Positions 7,586 to 32,181 of a stretch of DNA of 64,000 bases are shown here, one piece after another. The notes beneath the pieces were generated by a model. It searched no databases and was not told the origin of the DNA. It worked only from the letters and a program-made list of their open reading frames with translations. The translations under genes were made by a program, and so were the position numbers. This DNA is from a virus. The stretch lies in IMG/VR virus record IMGVR_UViG_3300046170_000470; one strand, given 5' to 3'. How positions within the stretch are numbered: position 1 is the stretch's first letter; every line of letters begins with the position of its first letter.

Positions 7586-10119
7586 GTTTAGTAAACGAAT
7601 TAATAAAAGGGTTATTACCTGAAGAGGAAAAAAAACAAACTACAGCAGTATATGCTGGTGGTTTTAAACCACCTACTTCTGGTCATTTTGAAGTTGTACA
7701 ACAAGCACTTAAAAAAAACCCAGAAATAGACGAATTTATTATTTTTATAGGTAATAAAGAACGAAATGGTATTTCCCAATCCGAATCTTTATTAATATGG
7801 GAAATATATAATAATTATCTTCCATTTAAAGTTAAAATAGTTCCTACATCTGTACCACCAATTAAAGCCGTATATAATTTTGCTAAAGAACACCCCACTA
7901 GAGAAGTATTATGGGTTATAGGTGCTAGAGAAGGTAATGAAGAAGATTTTAAAGATATTACTTCACGTACTAAATCAATTTCAAAATATCCAAATTTGGA
8001 ACTTCGTACTATTGTAACAGCAGGTGGTGTATCAGGAACAGCTGCAAGGAATGCAGCCAAGGTATCACAAGAAAAGTTTGTAAAGTTCTTACCTGGGATG
8101 TTAAACCCAGAAGAAAGAACAGAAATATATAATATTGTAGCAGATAAAATACAAGAAGTGTTAACTAAAAATAATAAAACAGAAGACTATACTAAAAAAC
8201 AAAATATAAACGAAAATCTTCCAAAAGTTATTATATATAAAAATAATTTAGATATAACTTCAGAATATGATAGTTTAGTTGAGAATATACCCCCAACCCA
8301 ACTTCCTATAAGTAGTATATGTCTATTAGATTCCTATTTTTCTAAAAAAGAATATTTAAATGAAATCAGCAACAATAAGATTAAATCTTTAAAAATATCG
8401 GTATCAAACAAAAAACATATTCCCCCAATAGTAGTTAGGGAATATAAAAACAAATATCAAGTATTAGATGGAAACCATAGGTATATAAGTTATAAAGAAT
8501 TAAATAAAGAACATATTAATGCTATTGTACTACCTACAAATCAAGTAGCTGAAATAACTTCCCCCCAAGATTTAGATTTAATATTTGAAAAAATGTTTAA
8601 TAAATACCCGGATTTTAGGAAGTTTAATTATAACCCTTACATTGCTTCACTTACTAAACATATGTTGGATAATGGTATGAAATTAGAACCATTACCTCAA
8701 ATTCAGATGATCCATGACGATTATGAAAATGGAGAAGATTTATTTGGTAAAACAGCTTATTACAACCCAGGAAATAATTCAGTAGTACTTTTTACTTATG
8801 GTAGGCATCCTAAAGATATTTTACGATCTTATGCCCACGAATTAGTTCATGTTCATCAAAATATGGAAGATAGATTAACAGGTTTAGGTGCAAATACTGA
8901 TGTTAATCAAGATGACCATTTAGAACAAATCGAAAGAGAGGCGTACGAGACAGGAAATATAATGTTTAGAAGCTGGACTGATTCTATCACAGGAAATAAA
9001 TTAACCGAAGAATTATCAATTAATCCCAACCTTCCACCTATAGAAATGTTACAAAGTAAATTAAAAAGACTGAAAGGAAACTTTTTTGGATCTACTTTAA
9101 ATGAAGGCAAGAAAAAAGACCCATTTGGTTTAAATGAATCTTCCCAACCTACTTTTACAATGTATAGTGGTATAACAGGAGATGCATGGGAAAAAATTTG
9201 GAAAGATAAAAATTTTAAAGATAAAGTTACTAATATTACTAGTGATGAGGATTTTGCATTAGATTATTCATATAATTTTAAAACAGGAAAATATGAAGAT
9301 AAATATGTAAAAATTTCTAATATCCCTTTAGATGCATTTGTATCAGTTAGAGACAGAGATTATGAGGATGATGATGATTTTGAATCTATAGCAAATTTAG
9401 GTGATGAGGAAAAGATAAATGCAATAAAATATAATGATTTATTTTTAGTAAACTTATTTCCTTACAAATCTCAAATTAAAACTACATTAATTGATGATAG
9501 CTTAAATGAAAAGAAAAAACCATATAAACATAAATCTGGATTTAATCCCAAATTAGGTAAAGATCCATTTGGTTTAAATGCTTATGCTAGAGAATTAGCT
9601 ATGGGTTTAGAAGAACAAGAAAATCAATTTAAAGTTTATTTAGATATGGATGGTGTTATTGCTGATTTTGATCAACGTTTTAGAGATTTATCTGGAATGG
9701 AACCACGTGATTTTGAAAATAAATATGGTAAAAAAGCATTTTGGAATTTAATTGATGAAGAAAATAAAATTAAATTTTGGGTAGGAATACCTGAAATGCC
9801 TGGAGCTAAAGCTTTAGTTGATTATGTTAAAAAATATAATTTTGAATTGTTAACTTCCCCATCTGCTAAAAAACAATCATATTTAGGAAAAATATTATGG
9901 GTAAGAAATCATATAGGTTCCGTGTTTCCCTCAAAACCCCGTATTAACTTTAAGAAGGCAAAGGAGAAACACCTTGTTAAACCACAATTAACTAAAACCG
10001 ATATTCTAATAGATGATCGAGAAGACACAATTGAAAGATGGAATGCAGCAGGTGGTACAGGAATAGTATACAAAAATATAAGCCAAGTACTAAACGACTT
10101 GGGTAAATTAGGTTTATGA
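7582..10119 (+). CDS. Multidomain polyprotein: HxGH nucleotidyltransferase + ParB/Srx-like + HExxH metallopeptidase + possible ART-like + HAD 5'(3')-nucleotidase
   Basis: GGFKPPTSGH...SGTAAR; PPIVV...VLDGNHR; AHELVH...EREAY; MYSG...ITSDEDFALDY; YLDMDGVIADF...LIDD. Confidence 0.75.
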   Translation: MSLVNELIKGLLPEEEKKQTTAVYAGGFKPPTSGHFEVVQQALKKNPEIDEFIIFIGNKERNGISQSESLLIWEIYNNYLPFKVKIVPTSVPPIKAVYNFAKEHPTREVLWVIGAREGNEEDFKDITSRTKSISKYPNLELRTIVTAGGVSGTAARNAAKVSQEKFVKFLPGMLNPEERTEIYNIVADKIQEVLTKNNKTEDYTKKQNINENLPKVIIYKNNLDITSEYDSLVENIPPTQLPISSICLLDSYFSKKEYLNEISNNKIKSLKISVSNKKHIPPIVVREYKNKYQVLDGNHRYISYKELNKEHINAIVLPTNQVAEITSPQDLDLIFEKMFNKYPDFRKFNYNPYIASLTKHMLDNGMKLEPLPQIQMIHDDYENGEDLFGKTAYYNPGNNSVVLFTYGRHPKDILRSYAHELVHVHQNMEDRLTGLGANTDVNQDDHLEQIEREAYETGNIMFRSWTDSITGNKLTEELSINPNLPPIEMLQSKLKRLKGNFFGSTLNEGKKKDPFGLNESSQPTFTMYSGITGDAWEKIWKDKNFKDKVTNITSDEDFALDYSYNFKTGKYEDKYVKISNIPLDAFVSVRDRDYEDDDDFESIANLGDEEKINAIKYNDLFLVNLFPYKSQIKTTLIDDSLNEKKKPYKHKSGFNPKLGKDPFGLNAYARELAMGLEEQENQFKVYLDMDGVIADFDQRFRDLSGMEPRDFENKYGKKAFWNLIDEENKIKFWVGIPEMPGAKALVDYVKKYNFELLTSPSAKKQSYLGKILWVRNHIGSVFPSKPRINFKKAKEKHLVKPQLTKTDILIDDREDTIERWNAAGGTGIVYKNISQVLNDLGKLGL
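9115..9580 (+). repeat. 22-bp direct repeat pair (9115-9136, 9559-9580) encoding KDPFGLN
   Basis: aaagacccatttggtttaaatg vs aaagatccatttggtttaaatg, one mismatch. Confidence 0.9.
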
Positions 10120-10725: not shown

Positions 10726-11688
10726 ATGAAAGATAATTTTGACGTACACAGTTGGAATCAAAAACGTTATTTGGGTAAATTAAATGAAAATAAATCCCAT
10801 CTAGAATTTTTATCTAAGTATTTGGGTTCTATGTACCCAAATTTAAGATTTGATATTAGTGACCATACAGAAAGAATTGATGTAAGAGGATCCCAACAAG
10901 ATATGATGGATTGGGGTGACGAAAATCATGGAAAGAAATTTGGAGAATTTGAAGTATTCCATGTAGATGATGATGACAGAGGAGAAATTGTCCGTATCGT
11001 AAAATCAGATAGTATATTAAGAGAAAATGTAGAAGAAGGTATAGTTAAAGATATGCATACATTTTTAAATGATTTAAGAGATTCAGGAGTGACTAATATG
11101 TTTGGTGCTGCTCCTTATCTACAAAAAGAATTTGGTATAGATCAAAAATCGGCAAGAGAAGTATTAGCTAATTGGATGCAATCATTTAGTGAAAATTTGC
11201 AATATAAAGATAGGAAACTAAGCCACGAAGAAGAAGATAGATTAGACTTAATTGCACATCGTGAATTCGATGGTGTAAGCTTTAGTAAATTATCTGATGA
11301 GGATAAAGCAAAAGTATTTGCACAAAGAGATAAAGTAGGTGTTAAAGAATCTATAACAAAAAAAGAAGATGATGAATTTGCAGGATCAGACCCTAAAGCA
11401 GGTTCAACTATTCAAGGTACTGGGTTTAATTGGAAGCCAAAAGATTCAATTAAAGAAACAATTAAATTTATCAAAGAAAATAATCCTGAATTTACAACAG
11501 AAGAAATAGCTACTGAACTTAAAGAAATTAAAGAATTAGGTAGTCAATTAAACGAAAAACTTTGTAAAAAAGGCGAAGCATATCGTAAACGTAGAATGGC
11601 TGCAGGTGAAAAATCATCAGCTTATTTATCTGGTCGTGCTGTTAAAGTATGTAAAGGTCAAATGAGTGGTAAAAAAAAGAAAAAATAA
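10726..11688 (+). CDS. Putative modular internal head protein
   Basis: Late motif at 10695; segments delimited by LNE, LRE/VEE, VKE, IKE, LNE; basic Cys-containing C-terminal module. Confidence 0.6.
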   Translation: MKDNFDVHSWNQKRYLGKLNENKSHLEFLSKYLGSMYPNLRFDISDHTERIDVRGSQQDMMDWGDENHGKKFGEFEVFHVDDDDRGEIVRIVKSDSILRENVEEGIVKDMHTFLNDLRDSGVTNMFGAAPYLQKEFGIDQKSAREVLANWMQSFSENLQYKDRKLSHEEEDRLDLIAHREFDGVSFSKLSDEDKAKVFAQRDKVGVKESITKKEDDEFAGSDPKAGSTIQGTGFNWKPKDSIKETIKFIKENNPEFTTEEIATELKEIKELGSQLNEKLCKKGEAYRKRRMAAGEKSSAYLSGRAVKVCKGQMSGKKKKK

Positions 11689-12562: not shown

Positions 12563-13318
12563 ATGAGGTTATTATGTTTACTATTTATACTACTTTTTAC
12601 AAGTTGTGGAATTGGATTTCAATACACAACATTAAATCATACGGGTCATATTGACGGCATTTACTCATCTAATGACTATAAAATAGATACATTAAATGAA
12701 TTTCAAGTTCGGAATAAATTAAGAACTGATTTTAATTTTAGATACGATTTTGCACAATATGCTTTATCCCAACCAGCTTCATTTGATTGGAATAATCGTT
12801 TACTAGGTAATAGATATAACTGGAACAGACCGTATTGGGGTTATAGTTACTATTGGGATAGAACACAAATGTGGAATGATTGGGTATGGGGTTATCCTTA
12901 TTCTAATTGGAGGTATAACAACTGGTATAGTTGGAATAGACCTTATTTAGGATGGAATAACTATAATTGGAATAATTGGGGTTGGAGAAATCAAATGAAT
13001 AATTATGCTTGGGTATACAGAAATAGACCTAATACTGTTCGTATAAATGGTTATAGAACTTCTAATAGAACATCTACTCGTACTATTATAAATAACTCAA
13101 ATAGGAGAACAACCCCTTCAGTTAATGTTAACAATAACAGAACTATTAGAGTAAATAAACCAAGAATTAATAATTCTAGACCTACAATTAATAATAACTC
13201 TAGACCAAGGGTTAATAATAATTCAAGACCATCTTCAACAATAAGAACAACCCCACGTACTTCTACTCGATCTAGCAATACTAGAACAGTAAGAAGTAAT
13301 TCTAGGAGAAAAAACTAA
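12563..13318 (+). CDS. Lipoprotein with W/Y/N-rich and R/N/S-rich low-complexity regions
   Basis: Hydrophobic signal with lipobox FTSC; WNN/WGY and NNSRP repeats. Confidence 0.75.
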   Translation: MRLLCLLFILLFTSCGIGFQYTTLNHTGHIDGIYSSNDYKIDTLNEFQVRNKLRTDFNFRYDFAQYALSQPASFDWNNRLLGNRYNWNRPYWGYSYYWDRTQMWNDWVWGYPYSNWRYNNWYSWNRPYLGWNNYNWNNWGWRNQMNNYAWVYRNRPNTVRINGYRTSNRTSTRTIINNSNRRTTPSVNVNNNRTIRVNKPRINNSRPTINNNSRPRVNNNSRPSSTIRTTPRTSTRSSNTRTVRSNSRRKN

Positions 13319-13343: not shown

Positions 13344-13820
13344 ATGAGCGATTTTAATTATCAAGCGTATTTAAAAAATAATCCCTTACTTCAAGAAGAA
13401 GTTAAAGAGGAAAAATTACTTACTGAATCTCAAGAAATTGATGAAACAGTAGAAGAAACTGTTGAGGAAGTAGCCGAAGAAACCACTGAAGAAATTCAGG
13501 AAGAAGTTCCTTCATCTAAAATTAAAGTATCTGAACTCAAAGCTAAAATTAAAGAAAATATTATTTCTTTACTTCAAGAAGAAGAAGATGAAGTAGATAT
13601 TGAAGATGAAATTGAAGCAGATGATGTTGAAGTAGATATTGAAGAACCAACAGTAGATACAACTTCCCCTGAAGTTGGCCTTTCATCTGATGAACAAGAA
13701 ATCCAAGATAGTTTAAAACTAGCCTACGATAATGCAGTTGCTATTGGAGACGAAAAACTAGCCGATCAAATCGGTAACTCAATTACATTCTTTACTAGAA
13801 CTCACGTTGTAGAAAGATAA
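13344..13820 (+). CDS. Acidic putative head/core protein
   Basis: Late motif at 13318; many [ILV]-x-E sites (LQE, LTE, IDE, VEE). Confidence 0.6.
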
Positions 13821-13821
13821 G

Positions 13822-16140
13822 ATGTTAAACGAACGTAAACTCACCGAAAATGAGATAGAGCAAAGGAAAATCGCTCTCAAAGGTTTGTTGAAAAACAAAC
13901 GTGCTCTAGTTAAAAAATACGGTGCGGATGCGGAAAAAGTTATGTACGGAATAGCCACTAAACAGGCAAAGAAAAAAGTTGAAAATATGAACTTGGACAA
14001 ACTCAAAGAAATGATCCAGGATGCCCTTACTGTTAAGGAAGCATCCCCTTTTGTATTAGCAGCAGACGCAGCTAAAGATGCAGGTAAAAAAGAATTCGAA
14101 TTTCCTGAAGGAAGTGGAAAAATGCACCCTGTTACAATTAAACAGGATATTAAAGAAGATAAATTTTCTAACGCTGCAATGAATGATATAATGCAAAGTG
14201 TCAGAAATCTTGCTCATACTACAGGTATGGATGAATTAGAAGCTGCAGAAATAGCAATTAACGAAATTAAAATTGAATTTGGTGTTGATGCTTTCCATGA
14301 ATCAGTAAATGAAGATCTAGATGTAGGACATCAAGATGACGAACCTCAAATGCTAAAATCAGATTTATATAGAATAGCTAAATATGCAGCTGAACTATAT
14401 AAAATGATGGACAAATATGATCAAGGTGGAGAAGTAGATTTTCCACATTGGTGGCAAGCTAAAGTTATCAAAGCAAGAGATTATATGGTAGCTGCTAAAC
14501 ACTATTTAGATGGTGAAGAAAAAGTAGACCAAATCGATGCTATGTTAGGTGTTAATGAAATAGATAATAGTGAATATGCTATGAAGCTTAGAGCACTTAA
14601 ATCACAACCTGAACCATCTAGAGGTGGAATTGATTACGATGAAGCTTTAACCTTAAGAGGTATGAAAGCTGAAATCGAAGCTGAAATTGCCCAATTATTC
14701 AGAGATATGGAGCAAGAAGCTGAACCAGAAGGTGGGCCAATTGCAGATAGATATGGTGATAAGTTAAATAAATTAGAAGATCGTTTATATAAAATCAACA
14801 AACAACTTCGTGATTATGATATGAACGAAGAAATGGCAGTATTTTCCTCAAAAGAAGATGAAGATAAGTACATTGAAAAAATGGTAGCTAAAACTCTTGA
14901 AAAAGAAAAAGAAAAAAAGAAAAAAGGAATAAACGAAGAAATGGATGATGGCCCATTATTTAAATATTTTAAAGCACAAGGATACGATGTAAAGGGACGT
15001 AGTGCTGACGGTAGTAAACCTGGATTTAAAGGATACCAAGTAAGTAGAGGTAACGATAGATATCCTCAATCGGTAATATTCCAATATAATAAAGATACTA
15101 ACAAATTTACTATCAGCAGAATGAGCGGTTATAGAATTGATCAAGATGAGGCAATTAAAGCTGGAATGAGAGAAAAAGGCCGTTCAGGAGCAGTTGGTAT
15201 GGATTCTTGGATGACAGATGGGAACTGGACACCAGTAAATATAGATGCTGAAGACTTAAAAGATATTGTTGATCATGTAATGACTGGTATAGAAAGAGAA
15301 TCTAAAGCACAAACAGACTTTTATGCTAAAAGAGGACCAACATCAGGTACTATAGATGAAGATACAGTTAAGGAACTTTATGATAAAGACTTTAACTATG
15401 ATAGTATAAGCATGGATAACGTAAAAGGTATGGATCTCAAACCCGGAAAATATCAAATGATATTTAAACATAAAAATGGCAACCTTGACCAAAGAAACTA
15501 CCCTGATTTAAGATCTTTTACAGCAGGTGCTACTCAATTTTTTGAATACGAACATTTTTTGAAAAAATTTGGAATTGAAGATAAAGTACGCTCGGGTGAG
15601 ATTAAGCTTAACCAACATGAAGATGAATTTGTAGACAAATATTTTGATGAAATCATTGATTTAATTAATAATTCTTCTAACGTTATTCTTTTAGTAAACG
15701 GTAAACCAGTAGCAGGTGGAACTATAAATGAAGAAAAAGGTCAATCGTTTTTTGATATGACAAGAGCTGAATTAATAGATTTCCTCAATACTACTGAAGA
15801 CAAAGTAGAAGACATGTCTTATAAAGAATTAAGAGATGCTGCTATTGAAAAAAATTATGATCTTAAAGAAGAAAAAATCGAAGTAGACGCTGATACTAAA
15901 TTTGAATTACCTTTAAAACATCTTATCCAAAAACACGTTAAAGAAGTAATGGATAGTAGAAAGAAAAAAGGATTCAAAGCAGGTGATAAAGTAACATACT
16001 TAGGACACCCAGGTGAAATTACTAAAGTTAACAAAGAAGTTACCGGTGATATTTCTTACAATGTATCATATGATAAAGGTAATGGTAAAACTAAGGCATC
16101 AAACATCTATAATAAAGGTGGTGAAATAAAAGCAGTATAA
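13822..16140 (+). CDS. Putative modular polyprotein (internal head protein)
   Basis: About 10 short segments bounded by VKE, IKE, VNE, VNE, MNE, INE, IDE, INE, LKE, VKE; C-terminal SH3/KOW-like 'FKAGDKVTY'. Confidence 0.6.
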
Positions 16141-16141
16141 C

Positions 16142-16576
16142 ATGACGGCATCAGAACTTAAAGAAAAAGTAAAAAGACTTGCTAAAAAAGTTTATCAAGA
16201 AAAAACTAAAGGAGATGATGCTGCTGTAGCATATGATGAATTAGTTAAATTCCCTGAACTTAAGGCAGTTATTATAGATTTACTTACAGCGGATTTTGAT
16301 AGTTTTTTAGAATCTGTTGATTGGGTATCACCTCGTCCATCTGCTTTTCGTGTAAATTTGTTGAATGGGCAAAATTTTATGCTTACATTCGATCCTAGAA
16401 GTTGGATAGCACAAGTAGAAGGTAAAAAATATTATTTACTTAACTTAGACGAAGAAGAAATGGCTGCTAAAGCTGTTTCTCGTATATTAGCTTACGGTCC
16501 TGCAAGTGGGGCAGCTGTTGAAGGTGATAATGATACTGTAGAGACAGAAGAAGAAATAGAAGTTGATGAAGAATAA
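16142..16576 (+). CDS. Hypothetical protein (putative head)
   Basis: Leader MTASELKE; acidic tail. Confidence 0.6.
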   Translation: MTASELKEKVKRLAKKVYQEKTKGDDAAVAYDELVKFPELKAVIIDLLTADFDSFLESVDWVSPRPSAFRVNLLNGQNFMLTFDPRSWIAQVEGKKYYLLNLDEEEMAAKAVSRILAYGPASGAAVEGDNDTVETEEEIEVDEE

Positions 16577-21636: not shown

Positions 21637-22020
21637 ATGTTAACATGGCTAAAAAGAAATTACCCATTATTTGTTATAGTAGGAGCATGTATAATAGCCT
21701 TTAACTTTTTTGGGGAAAAAGAAGATTATGTAGGGGAATATAATGCCAAAATCACTGCATTAGAACAAAAAGTTGATTCGTTACATCATGTAAATGACGA
21801 ATTATCTTTTAAAATAGATACCTTAAATGTCCAGATAGGTAAATTAGATCAACAATTAGATTTAAAAGATAACAAGATAAATAATTTAAGATATGAAATT
21901 AGCACAAAAGTTGATGCTGTTGATTCTTTTAATGACGATGAGCTTGAAAGGTTTTTCACAGAACGTTACAAACAGTACATCGATTCAATTAAAAAAACCA
22001 ATAGCGAAACTAGTAATTAA
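21637..22020 (+). CDS. N-anchored coiled-coil membrane protein (i-spanin-like)
   Basis: N-terminal TM helix followed by heptad coiled coil. Confidence 0.55.
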   Translation: MLTWLKRNYPLFVIVGACIIAFNFFGEKEDYVGEYNAKITALEQKVDSLHHVNDELSFKIDTLNVQIGKLDQQLDLKDNKINNLRYEISTKVDAVDSFNDDELERFFTERYKQYIDSIKKTNSETSN

Positions 22021-22306
22021 GGATTTAATTACTGGGGATGGAGCTAAAAATGAATTAGCTATTACTATAGATAAAATTAAACTGTTTGAACAAAAAATAG
22101 TTTTAAAAGATAGTGTTATTTTAAACTTAAATAATAAAATAAATAATTTTGATTCTATACTTTTAACAAAATCTGACCAACTATTATTATCCCAAGAATT
22201 ATCTAAAAGACTAGAACAAGATTTACAAAAACAAAAATTAAAAAATAAATTAACTATGGGAGCGGGTATACTAGGGATAGTAGCTGTTGCTATACTAGTA
22301 AAATAG
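21893..22306 (+). CDS. Overlapping secreted coiled-coil protein with C-terminal TM (spanin partner?)
   Basis: Signal-peptide-like N-terminus encoded inside the previous gene; hydrophobic C-terminal helix. Confidence 0.5.
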   Translation: MKLAQKLMLLILLMTMSLKGFSQNVTNSTSIQLKKPIAKLVIKDLITGDGAKNELAITIDKIKLFEQKIVLKDSVILNLNNKINNFDSILLTKSDQLLLSQELSKRLEQDLQKQKLKNKLTMGAGILGIVAVAILVK

Positions 22307-22307
22307 T

Positions 22308-23885
22308 ATGTCTGATTTAAAAAAGGTAATACGTCAAGAATATCTAAAATGTGCCAAAGACCCCGTACATTTTATGCGTAAATACTGTTATATACAGCAC
22401 CCACAAAGGGGGCGTATACCATTTAATTTATATCCATTCCAAGAAAAAGTACTCAAGCTATTTAGAGACAATGATTATTCTGCTGTATTAAAATCTAGAC
22501 AATTAGGTATATCTACATTAGCCGCAGGTTATTCTTTATGGTTAATGACATTTCATAAAGACCGAAATGTATTAGCATTAGCAACAACTCAAGCAACAGC
22601 AAGAAACTTAGTAACAAAAGTACAATTCATGTGGGAAAATTTACCTTCATGGCTTAAAGTAGATTCAGCTGAAAATAACAAATTATCTTTAAGATTAACT
22701 AATGGTTCAAAAATACAAGCAAAATCTTCAAATGCCGATGCCGCAAGATCGGAAGCAGTATCATTGCTAATAGTTGATGAAGCCGCCCTTTATTGATAAT
22801 ATTGCTGAGACATGGGCTTCTGCCCAACAAACACTTGCAACTGGTGGGGGTGCCATTGTACTATCAACCCCTTATGGTACTGGTAACTGGTTTCACCAAA
22901 CATGGGTTAAAGCAGAACAAGGAGAAAATGAATTTTTACCTATTAAATTACCATGGTATGTACACCCAGAAAGGGACCAATCATGGAGAGATGCACAGGA
23001 CTCATTATTAGGAGATCCTAGATTAGACAGCCCAAGAATGTGACTGTGACTTTAGTACCTCTGGTGATATTGTATTTTATAATGAGTATTTAGAATATTA
23101 CGAAAAATCTTTTATAAAAGAACCTTTAGAAAGAAGGGGTGCTGATCAAAATTTATGGGTTTGGGAATCCCCCGATTATAGCAGAAACTATATTGTAGTA
23201 GCTGATGTATCCAGAGGAGATGGAAAAGATTACTCAGCATGTCCATGTAATTGATACTGAAAGTAATGTGCAAGTTGCTGAATATAAAGGGCAAATTAAT
23301 ACAAAAGATTATGGTCATTTATTAGTAGGATTAGCTACTGAATATAATGAAGCAATGTTAGTAATAGAAAATGCCAACATTGGTTGGGCAACTATACAAG
23401 TTGCTATAGATAGACAATATCCTAACCTCTACTATTCACAACGGAGTGACTCCCCAAATGCTGATTCGTATTTTGACAAATATCAAGACCACTCTAAAAT
23501 GGTAGCTGGTTTTACAATGTCCTCTAGAACAAGACCTATGGTAATAGGTAAGTTTCAAGAATATATTAGTGATAAAGGAGTAACAATACAATCTAGAAGA
23601 TTAATAGAAGAAATGAAAGTGTTTATTTGGAAAAATGGTAGAGCAGAAGCCCAAACAGGATATAATGATGATCTAGTTATGTCATTTGGGATTGCAATGT
23701 ACATTAGAGATACAGCACTAAAATTAAGACAACGTGGTTTAGATGCAACCCGAAATGCATTAAATAACATAACAGTAAATAGAACACAATATCAAGGTGG
23801 GTATTTTTCAACAGGAGCTGATAACCCTTACCATATTGAAACCCAAAATGGTAATAAAGAAGATATTAGTTGGCTCTTTAAATAA
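22308..23885 (+). CDS. terL: Terminase large subunit (T4 gp17-like); three +1 indels (~22788, ~23027, ~23244)
   Basis: LYPFQ, KSRQLGIST, LIVDEAA-F, LSTPYG, QECDC, ADVSRGDGKDYS, IENANIG, NDDLVMS. Confidence 0.92.
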
Positions 23886-23909: not shown

Positions 23910-25811
23910 ATGGCAGATACAGGCTTATTTAGTAGATTAAGAAGATTATTCTCAACAGACATAATCATTAGAAATGTAGGTGGAGACCAAATAAAGGTGG
24001 TAGATAGTAGTACCATCCAAACAAATGGAGAATTACAAACAAATTCACTTATTGATAGATATAATAGATTATATTCTACAAACCCCTCATCTTTATATGG
24101 AGCTCAATTTAATTTTAATTATCAATATCTAAGACCCCAATTATATTCAGAATATGATGTAATGGATCAGGATGCAATCATTGCTTCTGCTTTAGATATT
24201 ATTGCGGATGAATCTACATTAAAAAATGATATGGGTGAAGTATTATCTATCCGTTCTTCAAATGAACAAATACAAAAAATACTCTATAACCTATTTTATG
24301 ATGTTTTAAATATTGAATTTAATTTATGGGCTTGGATACGTCAAATGTCTAAATTTGGTGATTTTTTCTTAAAATTAGAAGTAGCAGAAAAATTTGGTGT
24401 TTATAATGTTATACCTTATACTGCTTATCATATCTCAAGAGAAGAAGGATTTAACCCAGATAACCCTTCGGATATAAGATTTAGATATGACCCTAACGGT
24501 CTAGTTAACCCGAGTTCAGGAATGTATTCTACTCCAAATAATAAATCCCAAACAGAAAATGGTATTTTCTTCGATAATTATGAAATGGCTCACTTTAGAT
24601 TAATTGGCGACACCAATTATCTCCCTTATGGTCGTTCATATATTGAACCTGCTAGAAAATTATTTAAACAATATACTTTAATGGAGGATGCAATGTTAAT
24701 TCATAGAATTTCCCGTGCTCCAGAAAAACGTATTTTTTATATGAATGTTGGTTCTATTCCACCTAATGAAATAGATTCATTTATGCAAAAAACCATTTCA
24801 AATATGAAACGTACTCCTCATATAGATCAAAAGACTGGAGAGTATAATTTGAAATACAACATGCAGAACATGATGGAGGATTTTTATATCCCAGTTCGTG
24901 GAAATGATACTACAACAAAAATTGATACTACAAAAGGTTTAGATTATGATGGTATCCAAGATGTTGAATATTTAAGAGATAAATTATTTGCAGCACTTAA
25001 AATCCCAAAAGCATTTTTAGGATATGATGAAAATGTGGAAGGAAAGGCTACATTAGCAGCAGAAGATATTAGATTTGCCCGTACTATTGAACGTTTACAA
25101 CGTATTATGGTATCCGAGCTTAATAAAATTGCACTAGTTCATCTATATGCCCAAGGCTATAGAGATGAAGCATTGACCAACTTCGAAATTTCAATGCAAA
25201 CCCCATCAATTATATTTGAACAGGAAAAAATTGAATTAATGAAGTCTAAAACAGAATTAGCAACTTCCTTACTAGATAATAATTTATTACCTACAGATTG
25301 GATATATGATAATATTTTCCATTTATCAGAAGATCAATATGAAGAATATAGAGACTTAAATCGAGAAGATGCTAAACGTAAGTTTAGATTAGCTCAAATT
25401 GAGGCTGAAGGTAACGACCCAGTCGAAACTGGTAAGTCATATGGTACACCACATGATTTAGCTTCATTATATGGTAAAGGCAGAATGTATTCTGACCCTG
25501 GAAATGTACCTGATGGTTATGATACAGATTCAGATTTAGGTAGACCTAAAGATTCCATTTCAAACATTGGAAAACAGAATAGCAATTTTGGAAAAGATAG
25601 ATTAGGAGTTAAACGTATGAAAGATACTGATAAAAATGATTCTTCAGATAGTAGAACAGATACTAATAAATCAGGTCTAGCTTTAGAAAATGCCCAAACA
25701 ACTTTATTAAAAAATAAAGATATGTTTAAAAAAATGAATAAAAAGCAATTAGTATTTGAACAAGATAAAGATAATACATCATTATTAGATGAAAACCAAT
25801 TAAAGAAGTAA
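23910..25811 (+). CDS. Portal protein (T4 gp20-like)
   Basis: PYGRS, LMEDAMLIHRISRAPEKRIFY, EDFYIPVR, ALKIPKAFL, EDIRFAR. Confidence 0.95.
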   Translation: MADTGLFSRLRRLFSTDIIIRNVGGDQIKVVDSSTIQTNGELQTNSLIDRYNRLYSTNPSSLYGAQFNFNYQYLRPQLYSEYDVMDQDAIIASALDIIADESTLKNDMGEVLSIRSSNEQIQKILYNLFYDVLNIEFNLWAWIRQMSKFGDFFLKLEVAEKFGVYNVIPYTAYHISREEGFNPDNPSDIRFRYDPNGLVNPSSGMYSTPNNKSQTENGIFFDNYEMAHFRLIGDTNYLPYGRSYIEPARKLFKQYTLMEDAMLIHRISRAPEKRIFYMNVGSIPPNEIDSFMQKTISNMKRTPHIDQKTGEYNLKYNMQNMMEDFYIPVRGNDTTTKIDTTKGLDYDGIQDVEYLRDKLFAALKIPKAFLGYDENVEGKATLAAEDIRFARTIERLQRIMVSELNKIALVHLYAQGYRDEALTNFEISMQTPSIIFEQEKIELMKSKTELATSLLDNNLLPTDWIYDNIFHLSEDQYEEYRDLNREDAKRKFRLAQIEAEGNDPVETGKSYGTPHDLASLYGKGRMYSDPGNVPDGYDTDSDLGRPKDSISNIGKQNSNFGKDRLGVKRMKDTDKNDSSDSRTDTNKSGLALENAQTTLLKNKDMFKKMNKKQLVFEQDKDNTSLLDENQLKK

Positions 25812-25844: not shown

Positions 25845-26716
25845 TTGATGAAAATAAAACACTCCAAGTACAAAAACACAGGTATACTGTTTGAACTATT
25901 GGTGCGTCAAATCACTGCGGATACATTAAAAGGTGGAGATTCTCCAGCTATTAATATACTTAAAGAATACTTTGTAAAAACTTCTTTAGGTCGCGAGTAT
26001 AAGTTGTATGAATCAGTACTAAAATCTAATGTTTTAAATGAAGGAAAAGCTAATATAGTAATTAGTACTATACTTGAATCTTCTAAAGGGTTTAATCGCA
26101 CTTCATTAAAGAAACAAAAATATAACTTAATTAATGAAATTAAAAAAGCATTATGATTTAGATGTTTTCTTTGGTGCTAAAATTAAAAATTATAAAGAAC
26201 TAGCAGCTTTATATACACTAATTGAAAGCCATAGTACAGACACAAACACAAATGTTGATCAAGTCATTGATAATAAAATAACTTTACTAGAATATTTAAC
26301 CTAAACATGAAGTTAATACTAAAGAAGTTAAAGAAGATGTTCTTAAAGAATTTCAAACTTATGATAAAGACTTAAGAATACTTACATACAAAGTACTTTT
26401 AGAAAAGTTTAACAATAAATATGATAACTTATCTAGTGAACAAAAACAAGTACTTAAAGAATTTATAAACTCAGTAGACTCAGCTCCTGGGTTAAGAGAC
26501 TTTTATAATAGTAAAATAGATGAATTGAAATCTACTTTAAACGAAGAAGCTAAAACTATTAAAGATAAAGCTACTCAAATTAAAATTACAGAAGTGGCTA
26601 AGTATTTAGTTGAATTAGATAAAACAGCTAAGGTTAATAATGATAACTTAGTTGATTTATTACAATATTACGAACTAGTAAAAGAAATTAAAGTAGCAAA
26701 TGGCGTTCAAGTATAA
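25845..26716 (+). CDS. Conserved head-module protein; two +1 indels (~26147, ~26301)
   Basis: MKIKHSKYKNTGILFELL...; frames rejoin to ...LLQYYELVKEI; late motif at 25822. Confidence 0.7.
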
Positions 26717-27473
26717 ACTTAAAGAAGCACCTTCTCCTAACCTAGCCCAACAAACGGGAGCTAAAATAGGTGATGTGTCCTATTCTAAAGATGGAGATAC
26801 TAAATTTGTAGTTAATTCTATAGATAAAGAAACAGGCCAAATAGGATGGAAAGTAATTGAACTACCCGCATTTGATAAATTAAATGATGATGTTGATAGT
26901 TTAGTTTCAACAGCTAAAGGAGTTTATACTAAAACTAAGGATGATGAAAAGTTTAGAGAAATATATGAAGAAGCTAGACTTTTAAGAAATAAAATTAGAA
27001 AACATCTTCGTAACGAATACCCAGACGAGTATAAGAGAATGACTATGGAAGGGGAAATTGAAGAAGCTACGGGTGTTGATGGAGATGTTATAGATTTAAA
27101 TCCTTCTAATAAAACAAAATTATCCAATTATGTTAAATTACCACACCATTTAGCTGCGGCTCTATTAGATGTAGCAGATGAAATGATGGCGGATGAAGCT
27201 GATACAATTAAAAACCAACCTCAAATAAAACAAGCTCTTGCATTATTAAAAAAAGCAGCTGAAAAAGCTATGACAGGGGAAAAAGAAGTTGAAGAAGTAT
27301 CTACATCATCCGGTGTAGCTGCATACAATACTCCATTTGCCTTTAAAAAAGCAGGTAAAGAAGGAGTAAAAAATAATGTGTATGTTAAAAAGTTTGGATA
27401 TAAATTAGTACCTAAGGACAAAAAAGGAAATTATGTTCAAAAAGGTAGTGGTTTAGAAGTAAAAAACTTTTAA
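26700..27473 (+). CDS. Putative internal/core head protein
   Basis: Leader MAFKYKLKE; IEE and VEE sites; 'STSSGVAAYNTPFAF' module. Confidence 0.6.
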   Translation: MAFKYKLKEAPSPNLAQQTGAKIGDVSYSKDGDTKFVVNSIDKETGQIGWKVIELPAFDKLNDDVDSLVSTAKGVYTKTKDDEKFREIYEEARLLRNKIRKHLRNEYPDEYKRMTMEGEIEEATGVDGDVIDLNPSNKTKLSNYVKLPHHLAAALLDVADEMMADEADTIKNQPQIKQALALLKKAAEKAMTGEKEVEEVSTSSGVAAYNTPFAFKKAGKEGVKNNVYVKKFGYKLVPKDKKGNYVQKGSGLEVKNF

Positions 27474-27717: not shown

Positions 27718-28593
27718 AAAAAGCAGATCAATTATTTAAGGAATTAATCAATGAAAATTATATTGACCTTAAACCTATTAATAAAATAGAAGCTACACCT
27801 AAAACAAATTTTGAAAATAAATTTGCTGAATTTTTAGCTGAAGAAGCTAAAGTTGAAGAAAAAAAGGTAACTAAAGAAGTTGAAGAAGTAGCTGAAAGTA
27901 ATTTTGATTATAAAGATGTTAAAAATTTAGATAACCAAATTGGTCAAGAAGTATTAAATGGTATTTACTTTGAAGCAAAACAAAACCCAGATAAATCATT
28001 AGAAGAAATTAGAGAAATAGTATCTAAAAACTTAGCTAAGGATGGACAACATTATATGAATAATGCTATGTTTGGTATCGATGGTTTAAAGGCTGAAACA
28101 ATGAAATGTGAAGAAGTTTCAGGTAAACATGCTGCTAGTGGGATATTCTGATAAAGTTAAAGAAGTAGTAAAAGAATCTTTAATGGGTGGAACAACAAAC
28201 ATTGTTAAAGAAGAAGAAGAAGAAAAAGAAGCCCCAAAACCTAAAAAAGCTAAAAAAGTTAAAAAAGAATCAATTGACACTAAGCTAGCTGAAATTGGTA
28301 AAGAAGCAGAAGCTGTAAAATTAGAAGCTCAATTAGACTTTTTACATGATCATATTGCTGAAAAATTAGAAAGAGTTAATTCAATTAATGAAGATGAAAA
28401 TCTTAAAGAATTAATTGATAAAGCTAAAATGAAGCAAATGCAAAAAGAAATTAAAGAGCTAGAAAAGAAAAAAGCCAAAATGGAAAAAATCTATGAAAAA
28501 TCTTGTGGTAGAAAATACCAAAAAGAAGAAATTGTAGATGAAATGGAAGTTAACGGAGTTGAAGTAGAAGAAGTATCTTTGGACCATGAATAG
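27714..28593 (+). CDS. Putative prohead core protein; +1 indel near 28141
   Basis: ORFs 27714 and 28108 join (...AASGYSDKVKE...); charged, many x-x-E sites; immediately upstream of the protease. Confidence 0.6.
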
Positions 28594-29191
28594 ATCTCTA
28601 TTAATAGAAACTCATACTTTTAAGGCAAACCCAATTCAATTAACAGAGAATGTTAATTCAGAAAATGGGAATATGCTTGTAGAAGGTGTTTTAGCTACTG
28701 CCGAAGTAAAAAACGGCAATGGTAGATATTATTCTAAAGAATTATGGGAACGTGAAATGGATAAATATTCCCAACTTGTAAAAGAAAGACGTTCAATAGG
28801 TGAATTAGACCACCCAGAATCATCAGTTATAAATTTACAAAACGTATCACATATTATTTCAGAATATTGGTGGGATGGAGATAATGTAATGGGTAAAATA
28901 GAAATTTTACCTACTCCTTCAGGAAATATACTTAAAGAAATTATTAAAGCAGGTGTAACAGTAGGTGTTTCATCTCGTGGTATGGGATCGTTAGAGCAAA
29001 ACGGTAATGTAATGGAAGTACAAGATGACTTTGAATTATTATGTTGGGATTTTGTTTCAACACCTTCTAACCCAGGCTCTTATATGCATACCTTAAATGA
29101 AAGTAAAGGAGCCATTACTTATGACTATACTAATATAAACAATATCGTACGAGAAATTCTTTGTTCTAAAGGTTCTTGTCCCGTTTGTTAA
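28586..29191 (+). CDS. Prohead core maturation protease (T4 gp21-like)
   Basis: NGNGRYY, GELDHP, VSH, GVSSRGMGS, DFVSTPS. Confidence 0.95.
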   Translation: MNRSLLIETHTFKANPIQLTENVNSENGNMLVEGVLATAEVKNGNGRYYSKELWEREMDKYSQLVKERRSIGELDHPESSVINLQNVSHIISEYWWDGDNVMGKIEILPTPSGNILKEIIKAGVTVGVSSRGMGSLEQNGNVMEVQDDFELLCWDFVSTPSNPGSYMHTLNESKGAITYDYTNINNIVREILCSKGSCPVC

Positions 29192-29367: not shown

Positions 29368-30561
29368 ATGTCAAACAACAGAGATTTGCTCAAAGAAGCA
29401 ATTGCTGATGCTAAAGCGGTAAAAGAAACTGCCATAGCAAACGCTAAAGCTGCTTTAGAAGAAGCATTTACTCCTCATTTGAAATCTATGTTAGCCGCTA
29501 AATTGGAAGGAATGGACAAAGACGAAGACATCGACGAAGGATACGATAAGTATGAAGAAGATGACGTTAAAGAAGAAGTTTCTGACTGAATTAGATGAAG
29601 CTAAAAAGAAGACAAAGAAGAAGTAAAGGAAGCTGAAGAAGTAGAAGAAGCTAAAAAAGAAGAGGTTGATGAAGAAATCAATCTTGACGAATTACTTGCA
29701 GAACTTAATGAAGACGAAAAGGTAACTGAATCTGAAGAAATCGAAGAAGCTAAAGAAGAAATCGACGAAGCTAAGGAAGAAATTGACGAAGCTAAAGAAG
29801 AAATCGACGAAGCAAAAGATGACAAAGAAGAAGTTAAAGAATCAGAAGAAATTGAAGAATCTGAAGAAATTGAAGAATCAGAAGAAGTAACTGAAGCCGA
29901 AGAGGACGAAGCCGAAGAAGGTGAAGCCGAAGAAGGTGAAGGTGAAATGGAAGAGGAAGAAATTGATTTAGAAGATATGTCTGAAGATGACCTTAAAGGC
30001 TTTATTGAGGATGTAATTAAGGACATGGTACAAGCTGGTGAATTAGAAGCTGGAGAAGAAATGGAAATGGATGGCGAAGAGTCAGAAATGGATATGGATA
30101 TCGAAGTTGAAGATGAAGCAGAAATGCCAATGATGGAAGAAAAAAAGGAAGAAGTAGAAGAAGCTAAAAAAGAAGACAAAGAAAAAGTAGATGAAAGTGA
30201 AGAACTTACAACTGCATTATCTGAAGTTGAGGAACTTAAAAAGGAACTTAACGAAGTTAACTTACTAAACGCTAAATTACTTTATACTAATAAAATCTTC
30301 AAATCAAAGAATTTGTCTGAAGACAAAAAAGTTAAAGTGTTGAAAGCTTTTGATAAAGCTGAAACCGTAAAAGAAGCTAAAGTTATTTTTGAAACATTAA
30401 ACGAAGGTATCTCATCTAAAATGACAAAACCATCAATTAATGAAGTAAAAGGTAGTGCTTCAAAAGCTGCAGGAATAGCTCCTAAAGCAAAACAGCCAAT
30501 CGTTGAAAATGCTGCATTTGCACGTATGCAACGTTTAGCTGGAATTATTAAAGAAAATTAA
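29368..30561 (+). CDS. Prohead scaffold/core protein (T4 gp22-like); compensating +1/-1 indels at ~29584-29608
   Basis: LLKEAIADAKAVKETAIANAKAALEE...LNEVNLLNAKLLY...RMQRLAGI; very acidic; lies between protease and MCP. Confidence 0.85.
29734..29892 (+). repeat. Coding tandem repeats: 4 x 21 bp (EEI[D/E]EAK) and ~3 x 18 bp (ESEEIE)
   Basis: gaagaaatcgacgaagctaaa units at 29734-29817; gaatcagaagaaattgaa units from 29839. Confidence 0.85.
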
Positions 30562-30587: not shown

Positions 30588-32181
30588 ATGAGTTTACAAA
30601 CTTTATTAGAAAGTGCAAACCCATATCATTCAGTACAGAGTGATGCTGCTCGCTTAGCGACAAAATGGGAAAAAACAGGTTTGTTAGAAGGTTTAAAAGG
30701 TAGTACCAAAAATAACATGGGTATTATCCTTGAAAACCAAGCTAAACAACTTGTAGTAGAAAGCTCTCAAACAGGTGGAGGTGTCGGAAATGGCGGTACT
30801 TTCAGTGTTGGACAAGGTGAGCAATGGGCTGGTGTAGCTCTTCCGTTAGTACGTAAAGTATTCGGACAGATGGCCGCTCAAGAATTTGTATCAGTACAAC
30901 CAATGAACCTACCTTCAGGTTTAGTATTTTTCTTAGATTTCCAATATGGAGAGACTAAAGGAGGATTTGGCGAAGGTAAATCATTATATGGTGATACATC
31001 ATCATTTGCTTCTAACGACACTTCAGGTGGTCTTTATGGCGCTGGTCGTTTCGGATATTCAATCAACAACACATCTTCTGCTGTAACAGCTGTTACTTCA
31101 TCTGCAGGATGGCATGACTTAGGATATGATTCAGATTATTCAGCTTCTGCTGCTGCTGGAGACTACGTAAAAGTAGCTGTAGCTAAATCTGATCTTCCTG
31201 CTTTAGACGAAGCTGGTATAAGAGGATTCTCTTTAGATGTTGATTCATTACCTGCATTTGCAAAAGCAGATGGAAGTGATGTAGTATTTATTGTTGAAGC
31301 TGCTAATGCTTCTGTAGATAATAGCTATACTGTTGATTACCAACTACAACCACGTGATAACGCAAGAGGTGATTTCGAAGATGGAAACAACTCATTAAAT
31401 GGAGAAAATACCCCAATTTCTATCCCAGAAATTAACGTACAGATGAAATCATCTGCTATCGTAGCTAAAACACGTAAGTTAAAAGCTGTATGGACTCCTG
31501 AGTTCGCACAAGACTTGAACGCTTACCATTCTCTAGACGCTGAAGCTGAATTGACTTCTATCTTAAGTGAATACATTTCATTAGAAATCGATCTTGAGAT
31601 CTTAGATATGTTAATGGAAGGTGCTTCTGCTGGTACTGAAGTATGGTCTGCTGTAAACAACAGACGTTTAGTATCTGAAGATAACTTTGCTTCTGACCTA
31701 GGATTCTTTAACAGCCAAGGACAGTGGGTTCCAAACTTTAGGAACTAAAGTACAAAAGTTAAGCAACGTAATCCACCAAAGAACATTACGTGGTGGTGCT
31801 AACTTTATGGTAATTTCTCCAAAAGTATCTACAATCTTAGAAGCTATCCCAGGATTTGCTGCTGACGTAGATGGTGATGTAGAAAAAGCATCTTATGCCA
31901 TTCGGTGTACAGAAGATCGGAGCAATGGGGTGGTGGAAAAGTTAAGGTATACAAAAACCCTTACATGACTGAAAACCAAATCTTATTAGGATTTAGAGGG
32001 TACTCAGTTCTTAGAAAGTGGTGCTGTATTTGCTCCTTATATTCCATTAATCATGACTCCTCTAGTATACGATCCAGACACTTTCACACCAAGAAAAGGT
32101 CTATTAACTCGTTACGCTAAGAAAATGGTTCGTCCAGAATTCTACGGAACAATCAAAATTGAAGGATTAGATACTCTATAG
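30588..32181 (+). CDS. Major capsid protein (T4 gp23-like); three +1 indels (~31726, ~31899, ~31998)
   Basis: KWEKTGLLEG, ENQ, VQPMNLPSGLVF, AKTRKLKAVWTPEFAQDL; shifted frames give APYIPL and TRY; ends TAG 32179-32181. Confidence 0.95.

Follow-up and report, generated by a model that had tools for sequence, protein, structure and literature searches.

A mosaic protein of a T4-like phage with recurrent aliphatic-polar-Glu junctions, a candidate cassette polyprotein for the prohead protease

The 64,000-nucleotide stretch of viral DNA considered here (IMG/VR record IMGVR_UViG_3300046170_000470, referred to below as the window) is AT-rich, with about 31% G+C, and has nearly all of its genes on the + strand. 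One of these genes encodes a protein of 772 amino acids (aa) in which short segments of differing character follow one another, their boundaries being marked by tripeptides such as VNE, INE, MNE and LKE. An initial annotation, made from the sequence letters, had described it as a beads-on-a-string protein of about ten mini-modules that would release many small peptides. The open reading frame (ORF) is intact over its full length, and all ten of the endings listed in that annotation are present, namely VKE73, IKE112, VNE164, VNE246, MNE336, INE372, IDE513/VKE518, INE637, LKE683 and VKE708. The modular layout also holds, with about 11 modules by our count, one boundary, at residues 269/270, having been overlooked. 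The ORF and its modules, designated A to K, are as follows.

13822..16140, + strand: mosaic ORF of 772 aa; product of 88.1 kDa with an isoelectric point (pI) of 5.2
13822..14040, + strand: module A, aa 1-73; basic (pI 9.7) and helical; begins M-L-N-E; at residue 1 in nearly all relatives
14041..14313, + strand: modules B (aa 74-112, ending in IKE) and C (aa 113-164, ending in VNE); homology breaks at 112-113 and 160-165
14314..14829, + strand: modules D (aa 165-246, ending in VNE) and E (aa 247-336, ending in MNE); most conserved core, with a sub-boundary in E at 269/270
14830..14937, + strand: module F, aa 337-372, ending in INE; 36-aa insert with 16-nt direct repeats at 14821-14836 and 14929-14944
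14938..15360, + strand: module G, aa 373-513, ending in IDE; autonomous alpha/beta domain of 15.8 kDa
15361..15870, + strand: spacer DTVKE, module H (aa 519-637, ending in INE) and module I (aa 638-683, ending in LKE); missing from most relatives
15871..16137, + strand: modules J (aa 684-708, ending in VKE) and K (aa 709-772); K is a small basic beta domain, often C-terminal in relatives

The boundaries of one of these modules are also marked at the level of the DNA. The 13-nt junction string that had been reported as duplicated has just two copies in the window, starting at 14824 and 14932, where none would be expected by chance, and forms part of a 16-nt direct repeat (15 of 16 positions identical) that brackets the 36-aa module F in frame. 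Of the second pair of similar junctions, GTINE had been placed correctly at 15718, and GTIDE has to be moved from 15287 to about 15346, a minor slip. Modules A and K are basic and the remaining modules acidic. The MLN start of the chain is kept in the family, in which this tripeptide was counted 93 times, and module A is a candidate for a targeting or anchor part.

The window contains a T4-type head module with terminase pieces, Portal_T4, Peptidase_S77, a scaffold-type protein, a Gp23-family capsid protein and a tail sheath. The sole cultured relatives are the Flavobacterium phages vB_FspM_immuto (Immutovirus, 160 kb, Baltic Sea), which are syntenic with the window around the 772-aa ORF. On balance, we take the source of the ORF to be a T4-like, Immutovirus-related phage of marine Bacteroidota. 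No family match for the 772-aa protein was obtained in Pfam, PHROG, NCBIfam or the PDB sequences (phmmer), the Pfam search recovered no embedded peptidase domain, and a look-up in the ESM Atlas gave no usable lead. Likewise, family searches of the neighbouring proteins and of the profiles A1 and A2 yielded nothing useful.

The number of junction-like tripeptides is well above what the composition of the protein would give. In 100,000 composition-preserving shuffles of its sequence, the seven occurrences of [LIVM]NE (0.81 expected) were equalled once and the 13 occurrences of [LIVM][NK]E (2.78 expected) never; the wider pattern [LIVM][NKD]E is seen 15 times against 4.3 expected. Among the 61 larger ORFs of the window this enrichment is confined to a subset, which includes the 772-aa ORF, ORFs 7582, 10726 and 28108 (named by their first positions) and the scaffold gene. 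The portal, capsid and sheath proteins have no aliphatic-polar-Glu site at all.

An exhaustive phmmer search recovered 2,293 representative metagenomic relatives (E up to 0.001), the majority of which align in several discrete stretches. In a collection reduced at 90% identity there were 1,558 matches of similar length and 1,356 shorter ones, none with a Pfam domain or an informative name. When the best 150 relatives were compared with the 772-aa query by local BLAST, alignment ends clustered at query residues 69-76, 112-113, 242-252, 336 (19 times) and 513 (23 times), and alignment starts at 160-165, 270 (16 times), 366-370, 698 and 718. The usual first place of A and the frequent last place of K apart, the orders and contents of the modules vary among these 150 relatives. 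Alternative arrangements include G-E-IJK (P0039), FG-E (P0046), E followed by D (P0131, P0139) and an N-terminal G (P0052), and module D is present twice in some relatives. In the immuto protein gp079 (841 aa), similarity to the query is limited to aa 165-338 (79% identity) and breaks off at MNE; gp079 further contains a second, diverged copy of D, preceded by SLNE. Thus, rather than being colinear over the full length of the query, the homologues show its modules in other orders, in other carriers and in one case as a separate gene, in line with the modular description given initially.

The junctions themselves are under constraint. In about 260 relatives, we collected the residues aligned to sites 112, 164, 336, 372 and 513. 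An aliphatic residue at P3 together with Glu at P1 was found in 79-97% of the unique contexts at these five sites, and the four residues that follow take from 13 to 75 forms (75 after IKE112 and 41 after VNE164), P1' at sites 336 and 372 being mostly Ala, Ser or Gly. Conservation at site 73 is weak. A second motif lies within 8 residues downstream in 62% of the contexts at 336 (typically as MNE-SVNE) and in 41% of those at 513, compared with a background of 13%. Across the family, [LIVM]NE is six-fold above expectation, and a [LIVM]NE-type site occurs within 8 residues of 22% of the internal alignment ends, versus 8% of random positions. An alternative chemistry, cutting at Asn through a succinimide, was discarded, since it is Glu that is conserved at these sites while P2 varies (N/K/D/T).

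Individual relatives illustrate how cassettes come and go at such sites. P0153 is identical at 757 of 772 residues over the full length (92% overall with gaps); most of the differences lie just after IKE112, and a 50-aa cassette, itself ending in LGE, is inserted exactly after VNE164. In P0003, P0054 and others, SGTIDE runs straight into EKIE without aa 514-683, so that this stretch is an insertion bounded by two motif sites. P0154 (653 aa, '100% identical') was discarded as a distinct relative, as it is an N-terminally truncated call. The apparently natural split of the gene on a 165-kb relative (P0016 and P0374 on contig Ga0634391_00063, L002) was also rejected: it is a +1 frameshift in TGTATATAAAATC (9080-9180), inside the end of module E, and gene callers therefore give proteins of 375 aa and 223 aa, the second of which starts at the Met of DYDMNE. 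This split is no evidence for stand-alone modules.

Structure prediction gave a comparable picture of separate units. A full-length AlphaFold2 model built on an alignment of 47 sequences has a mean predicted local distance difference test score (pLDDT) of 54 and a predicted template modelling score (pTM) of 0.27, and shows separate confident modules, namely a helical hairpin at 270-335 (module E), an alpha/beta domain at 378-503 and a small beta unit at 718-765, along with a domain of moderate confidence at 526-633. The segments of low confidence are 63-119, 152-180, 226-269, 336-343, 364-373, 504-525, 634-645 and 658-717. Each proposed junction lies within one of them. Residues with pLDDT below 50 make up 40% of the chain and include 13 of the 15 [LIVM][NKD]E sites (binomial P 3e-4). 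Modelled alone, module G reaches a pLDDT of 78 and a pTM of 0.74, with a disordered IDE-bearing tail. Given the low full-length pTM and the ability of G to fold by itself in the models, the 772-aa protein is not one continuous fold. A fold search of the full-length model against the PDB returned no match. For module G, a wide VIA fold search gave a best Z of 6.3, which is under the noise level stated for the tool, and Foldseek found nothing significant in the PDB or BFVD (best rows at E 0.03-0.2). The C-terminal 'double-wing' domain of T4 MotA is among these best Foldseek rows for G, being the top one in the PDB, and is a lead rather than a finding.

A BLAST comparison of all fetched relatives with every ORF of the window showed that the cassettes are shared with other genes, among them at least five further carriers in this group of phages. 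Three of the genes of the window that are concerned are listed here.

10726..11688, + strand: second carrier gene, 320 aa, with a leader ending in LNE21; exchanges cassettes with the 772-aa ORF
16142..16576, + strand: stand-alone gene, 144 aa, with the leader MTASELKE; its module is the same as the C-terminal end of immuto gp079
26700..27473, + strand: head-cluster carrier gene, 257 aa, with the leader MAFKYKLKE; homologues hold G, E and K cassettes

Pieces of ORF 10726-11688 were found inside 51 of 373 relatives of the 772-aa ORF, and P0310, P0046 and P0110 are homologues of ORF 10726 that hold E and G cassettes. Similarly, P0124 combines a homologue of ORF 12287 with G, P0035 joins the N-terminus of ORF 17649 to E, G and K, and in P0039, P0125, P0141 and P0052 homology to ORF 26700 is combined with G, E and K. 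On two independent contigs, the gene for P0039 is located between those for Portal_T4 and Peptidase_S77, a position that ties the cassettes to the head-assembly cluster. In all, module G is present in five different carrier genes and, like the other shared cassettes, is flanked by the motif each time; the flanks read, for instance, ...LNE followed by MDGG...SGTIDE and, for another cassette, ...NE followed by IDYDE...DYDMNE. The product of the stand-alone 144-aa gene aligns from its residue 1 with aa 672-793 of gp079 (39% identity, E 2e-23), where the match is preceded by VSKSELKE. In P0052, which is in a syntenic position on an 88-kb contig, G stands directly behind an 18-residue leader ending in LNE, and the neighbouring gene encodes a second mosaic protein of 1,116 aa that has only D in common. 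P0127 (213 aa) consists of a leader, G and a Cys-rich tail; as its contig is 1.3 kb long, the gene call is the sole basis for taking it as complete.

The tail of P0127 is an instance of a recurrent basic, Cys-rich C-terminal cassette (CCGKCGR.H.KG..C...), which often follows the IDE junction of G and is also seen in P0052, P0059, P0082 and P0124. It looks like a small zinc-ribbon tail. Comparable basic, Cys-containing tails are present in ORFs 10726 and 17649 of the window.

A protease of a family with a suitable specificity is encoded in the same window, within the head cluster. The features that matter for processing and for the timing of expression are the following.

23910-25811: Portal_T4
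28586..29191, + strand: prohead protease of the T4 gp21 family, between Portal_T4 and Gp23; proposed cutter
29947..30561, + strand: acidic scaffold-type protein with LNE, VKE, LNE, INE and IKE in its last 100 residues
13318..13327, + strand: ATATTTATAA, late-promoter-like motif 26 nt upstream of ORF 13344, heading the unit that contains the 772-aa ORF
13344..13820, + strand: first gene of the unit 13344 > 13822 > 16142 > 16577...; 158 aa, 21.5% Glu, with a leader ending in VKE22
188, 2878, 10695, 13318, 18625, 21091, 23885, 25822, 33094, 33121, 38199, 40517, 42498 and 44913, + strand: copies of ATATTTATAA

The protease matches Pfam Peptidase_S77 (PF03420) with E 7.9e-30 and 104 bits (cut-off 27), and phrog_207 with E 1.4e-58. 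Its S77 domain ends in ...TLNE172, to which ...SLNE corresponds in immuto gp070. Head-cluster ORFs begin with MAFKYKLKE and MKKADQLFKELINE, and genes neighbouring the 772-aa ORF have leaders of 6-22 residues that end in the motif. In T4, gp21 cleaves after L/I-x-E, and leaders of about 10 residues ending in L/I-x-E direct cargo into the head and are then removed; processing in T4 is blocked when Asp replaces Glu at P1 (PMC9026906). The gp21-related proteases of phiKZ and SPN3US cleave after S/A-x-E, with redundant sites and C-terminal self-cutting (PMC9026906; PMC5694885). Judged by sequence, the junction motif of the 772-aa protein is in keeping with the L/I-x-E specificity known for T4 gp21-type enzymes. 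The immuto protein gp067 (L005, 5027-6268), annotated as a 'DNA polymerase phi-like protein', is actually an acidic scaffold-type protein encoded between the protease and capsid genes, and contains a tandem pair of cassettes of about 60 aa (GFEQWLDSVSAQ...), each preceded by VNE or LEE.

Against an expectation of 2.4, the decamer ATATTTATAA is present 14 times in the window, each time on the + strand, and most copies stand 22-38 nt before the start codon of a structural or late gene, such as those of the portal, sheath and tube and ORF 10726. By analogy with the T4 late promoter, it is a candidate late-promoter analogue. Immuto carries CTATTTATAA at matching places.

Other features of the surrounding genes are recorded here in their own right. 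The leader of the 158-aa Glu-rich protein (13344-13820) is of the M-x-D-F-N-Y type, and this protein may be scaffold-like or a DNA mimic. Upstream of it, 12563-13318 encodes a 251-aa protein of very unusual composition, with a lipoprotein-type signal (MRLLCLLFILLFTSCG) followed by a long low-complexity body rich in W, N, Y and R; its single Glu is in TLNE46. At 42521-44908, a 795-aa late protein has the leader MDEINKLNE and five more aliphatic-(N/K)-Glu sites in its first 121 residues, with a coiled-coil-like N-terminus and hydrophobic segments near the C-terminus; it could be tape-measure-like or another processed protein. The large terminase subunit is in pieces within 21893-23885. Terminase PHROGs are matched by 22308-22796 and by 23205-23885, and the intervening stretch of about 400 nt could be an intron, an inserted element or the result of frame errors. 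The Gp23-family capsid gene (30588-32181) runs across three reading frames (30588-31748, 31702-31968 and 31990-32181), and in the scaffold region two in-frame stops near 29587-29604 separate an 83-aa N-terminal piece from the acidic body. These breaks are either assembly indel errors or real, and other frame breaks in the window are therefore to be read with care.

With modest confidence, we favour the interpretation that the 772-aa ORF encodes a capsid-targeted cassette polyprotein which is cut by the prohead protease. The chain would consist of small self-folding modules and disordered linkers, each of the latter ending in aliphatic-(N/K/D/T)-Glu. It would be made late, along with the head proteins, and incorporated into the prohead core, probably by way of the conserved basic N-terminal module A. 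During head maturation, the gp21-type serine protease (Peptidase_S77) would cut after the Glu of each exposed junction and release about 11 pieces of 0.6-15.8 kDa, which would stay in the head and might then either exit with the DNA at infection or be cleared as core debris. The compactness of the T4 internal protein IPI* is thought to ease its passage through the portal (PMC9026906), and the similar size of the predicted pieces would explain why the chain is cut. Cassettes, each with its own junction, would be passed among several carrier genes, the short repeats in the junction-coding DNA serving as sites of recombination. Packaging, cleavage, the fate of the pieces and the functions of all modules are what we infer here, no module having a recognisable function; so too the release of peptides from the chain and their action as inhibitors of host proteins, both proposed in the initial annotation, may apply but keep the standing of suggestions. 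A more far-reaching version, which we put forward only tentatively, sees in these genes a combinatorial cargo system, in which marine T4-like phages of Bacteroidota would draw on a pool of cassettes with their own protease sites and, through recombination in the junction-coding DNA, splice them into several capsid-targeted carrier genes, so that a single late gene would have a changeable set of a dozen small effectors injected with the DNA.

Several observations weigh against packaging and cleavage. The motif is just three residues long, and its bare form [LIVM]xE is seen 17 times where 16 are expected, which is no enrichment; as 15 of these 17 have N, K or D at P2, the anomaly lies in the bias at P2 and in the placement of the sites. 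Four of the 15 sites (63, 138, 148 and 708) are inside predicted helices and, going by the model, are probably not junctions, and K/E-rich amphipathic helices give such tripeptides anyway, as in the coiled-coil N-terminal part of ORF 42521. T4 internal proteins are basic, whereas the 772-aa protein is acidic overall, and as it begins with MLNE its N-terminal leader would have only 4 residues, compared with about 10 in the T4 capsid-targeting sequence. The gene is outside the head cluster, about 8 kb upstream of the terminase, where auxiliary genes and genes of nucleotide metabolism surround it; upstream of immuto gp079 the exact decamer ATATTTATAA was not found, only a variant with two mismatches; and the literature yielded no virion proteome of immuto-type phages. 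The principal rival builds on some of these points and holds that the protein is an uncleaved multidomain mosaic, a flexible hub of beads on a string that works, in the cytoplasm or on the virion, as an undivided chain, and whose linkers merely share a composition. Its endings would be a favoured helix or module terminus in a K/E/N-rich protein, kept since their DNA provides microhomology for exchange. Unprocessed domain shuffling is common among phage proteins, and the ordinary [LIVM]xE total, the tripeptides in the coiled-coil part of ORF 42521 and the 16-nt repeat around module F are all in its favour. We nonetheless hold it to be unlikely, because P3 and P1 are kept at the protein level through different codons and P2 residues (MNE, IDE, LNE, VKE), whatever follows them, and the tandem repeats of the motif at 4-5 residues, as in MNE-SVNE, serve no obvious structural purpose. 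Furthermore, the motif ends the protease domain and fills the scaffold, both of which are classic substrates of gp21-type enzymes, and cassettes are found in a gene of the head-assembly cluster as well.

The protein might instead be packaged as an accessory of the prohead core or scaffold and be cut only for clearance, as in the case of T4 gp22, its pieces having no role after infection. Such a function would suit the junction motif and the acidic composition, which resemble those of a scaffold, the cutting of T4 gp22, gp67 and gp68 into small peptides (PMC9026906), and the repeated cassettes of the immuto scaffold, each with a motif before it. However, several modules are well-folded globular domains (G with its pTM of 0.74), D-E is strongly conserved, being 79% identical to immuto while all else differs, and cassettes turn over rapidly and in many combinations, as one would sooner expect of conflict-related cargo than of a scaffold for assembly; we rate this reading as quite improbable. 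That adjacent small genes were read as one ORF through assembly errors or lost stops is not supported and in our view barely credible. Apparent frame breaks do exist in the capsid and scaffold genes of the window, and the gene of one relative is split by a +1 frameshift; yet the 772-aa frame is open and recurrent, the identical protein being encoded on 5 contigs of up to 167 kb, P0153 matches it over the full length, gaps accounting for its lower overall identity, and there are hundreds of relatives of 400-1,300 aa with long open frames on contigs of up to 170 kb.

If the cassette polyprotein is indeed packaged and cut, the T4 principle, by which a leader and a protease site make a protein capsid cargo, would no longer be limited to single small proteins but would apply to long polyproteins under rapid reshuffling. 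A very large, wholly unannotated family, comprising no fewer than 2,293 clusters when grouped at 50% identity and carried by phage contigs of about 160-170 kb, would also gain a purpose. With the junction rule, injected cargo in abundant marine phages of Flavobacteriia could then be predicted simply from sequence, and anti-defence or host-takeover factors would naturally be sought among the motif-flanked cassettes. Should the combinatorial version hold, a double-stranded DNA phage would be using for its injected cargo a polyprotein strategy that is elsewhere characteristic of RNA viruses. The cassette-polyprotein idea can be tested directly in the cultured phage immuto.

Among known systems, several share features with the 772-aa chain. 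Polyvalent proteins have 2-15 modules in highly variable architectures, are predicted to be packaged with the DNA and delivered along with it, and are sometimes processed by peptidases (Iyer et al. 2017; PMC5512222). Likewise, the chain has about 11 modules in one polypeptide, and its architecture varies among relatives and carriers. However, polyvalent proteins have recognisable enzymatic or anti-defence domains (ParB-like, ART, MPTase, methylase) and often a zincin-type peptidase of their own, whereas the 772-aa protein lacks this defining feature, having no domain known to Pfam, PHROGs, NCBIfam or the PDB sequences; its modules are of 25-140 aa, and the proposed cutter is a separate prohead protease with a motif at each junction. 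In phiKZ, 201phi2-1 and SPN3US, cleavage after Glu, directed by very short motifs, affects many proteins inside the head (PMC5694885; PMC9026906). The short post-Glu motifs of the present chain resemble those of the phiKZ-type inner-body and ejection proteins, as do the doubled sites at 336 and 513, which recall the redundant sites of phiKZ propeptides (PMC9026906). The phiKZ-type proteins, from jumbo phages of Proteobacteria, differ in having a small P3 residue (S/A/G) rather than an aliphatic one and in that a single mature part remains of each once a long N-terminal propeptide is lost; no description presents them as strings of exchangeable modules. Another likeness is to T4 gp22 and gp67/gp68, which are acidic, helical, late proteins cut at multiple L/I-x-E sites, and one cassette carrier is found at the position of gp67/gp68, between portal and protease. 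In contrast, gp22 is no mosaic of globular cassettes and exchanges no parts with other genes.

The closest parallel is with the T4 internal proteins (IPI, IPII, IPIII and Alt). The window belongs to a T4-type phage with Portal_T4, Gp23 and Peptidase_S77; the motif is aliphatic-x-Glu, after whose Glu cutting is expected; neighbouring late genes have motif-ending leaders; and the predicted products are of small cargo size and highly variable between related phages (PMC9026906). The 772-aa protein has no sequence similarity to any T4 internal protein. T4 cargo comes from separate small genes, each with one leader of about 10 residues, whereas here up to eleven modules with internal junctions stand in one chain, P2 is strongly biased to N/K/D, a conserved 73-aa N-terminal module takes the place of the 10-mer, and modules are exchanged between carriers. 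In the literature searched we found no description of a phage cassette polyprotein of this kind, and we would class the 772-aa chain as a variation on the theme of the T4 internal proteins and their capsid-targeting sequence.

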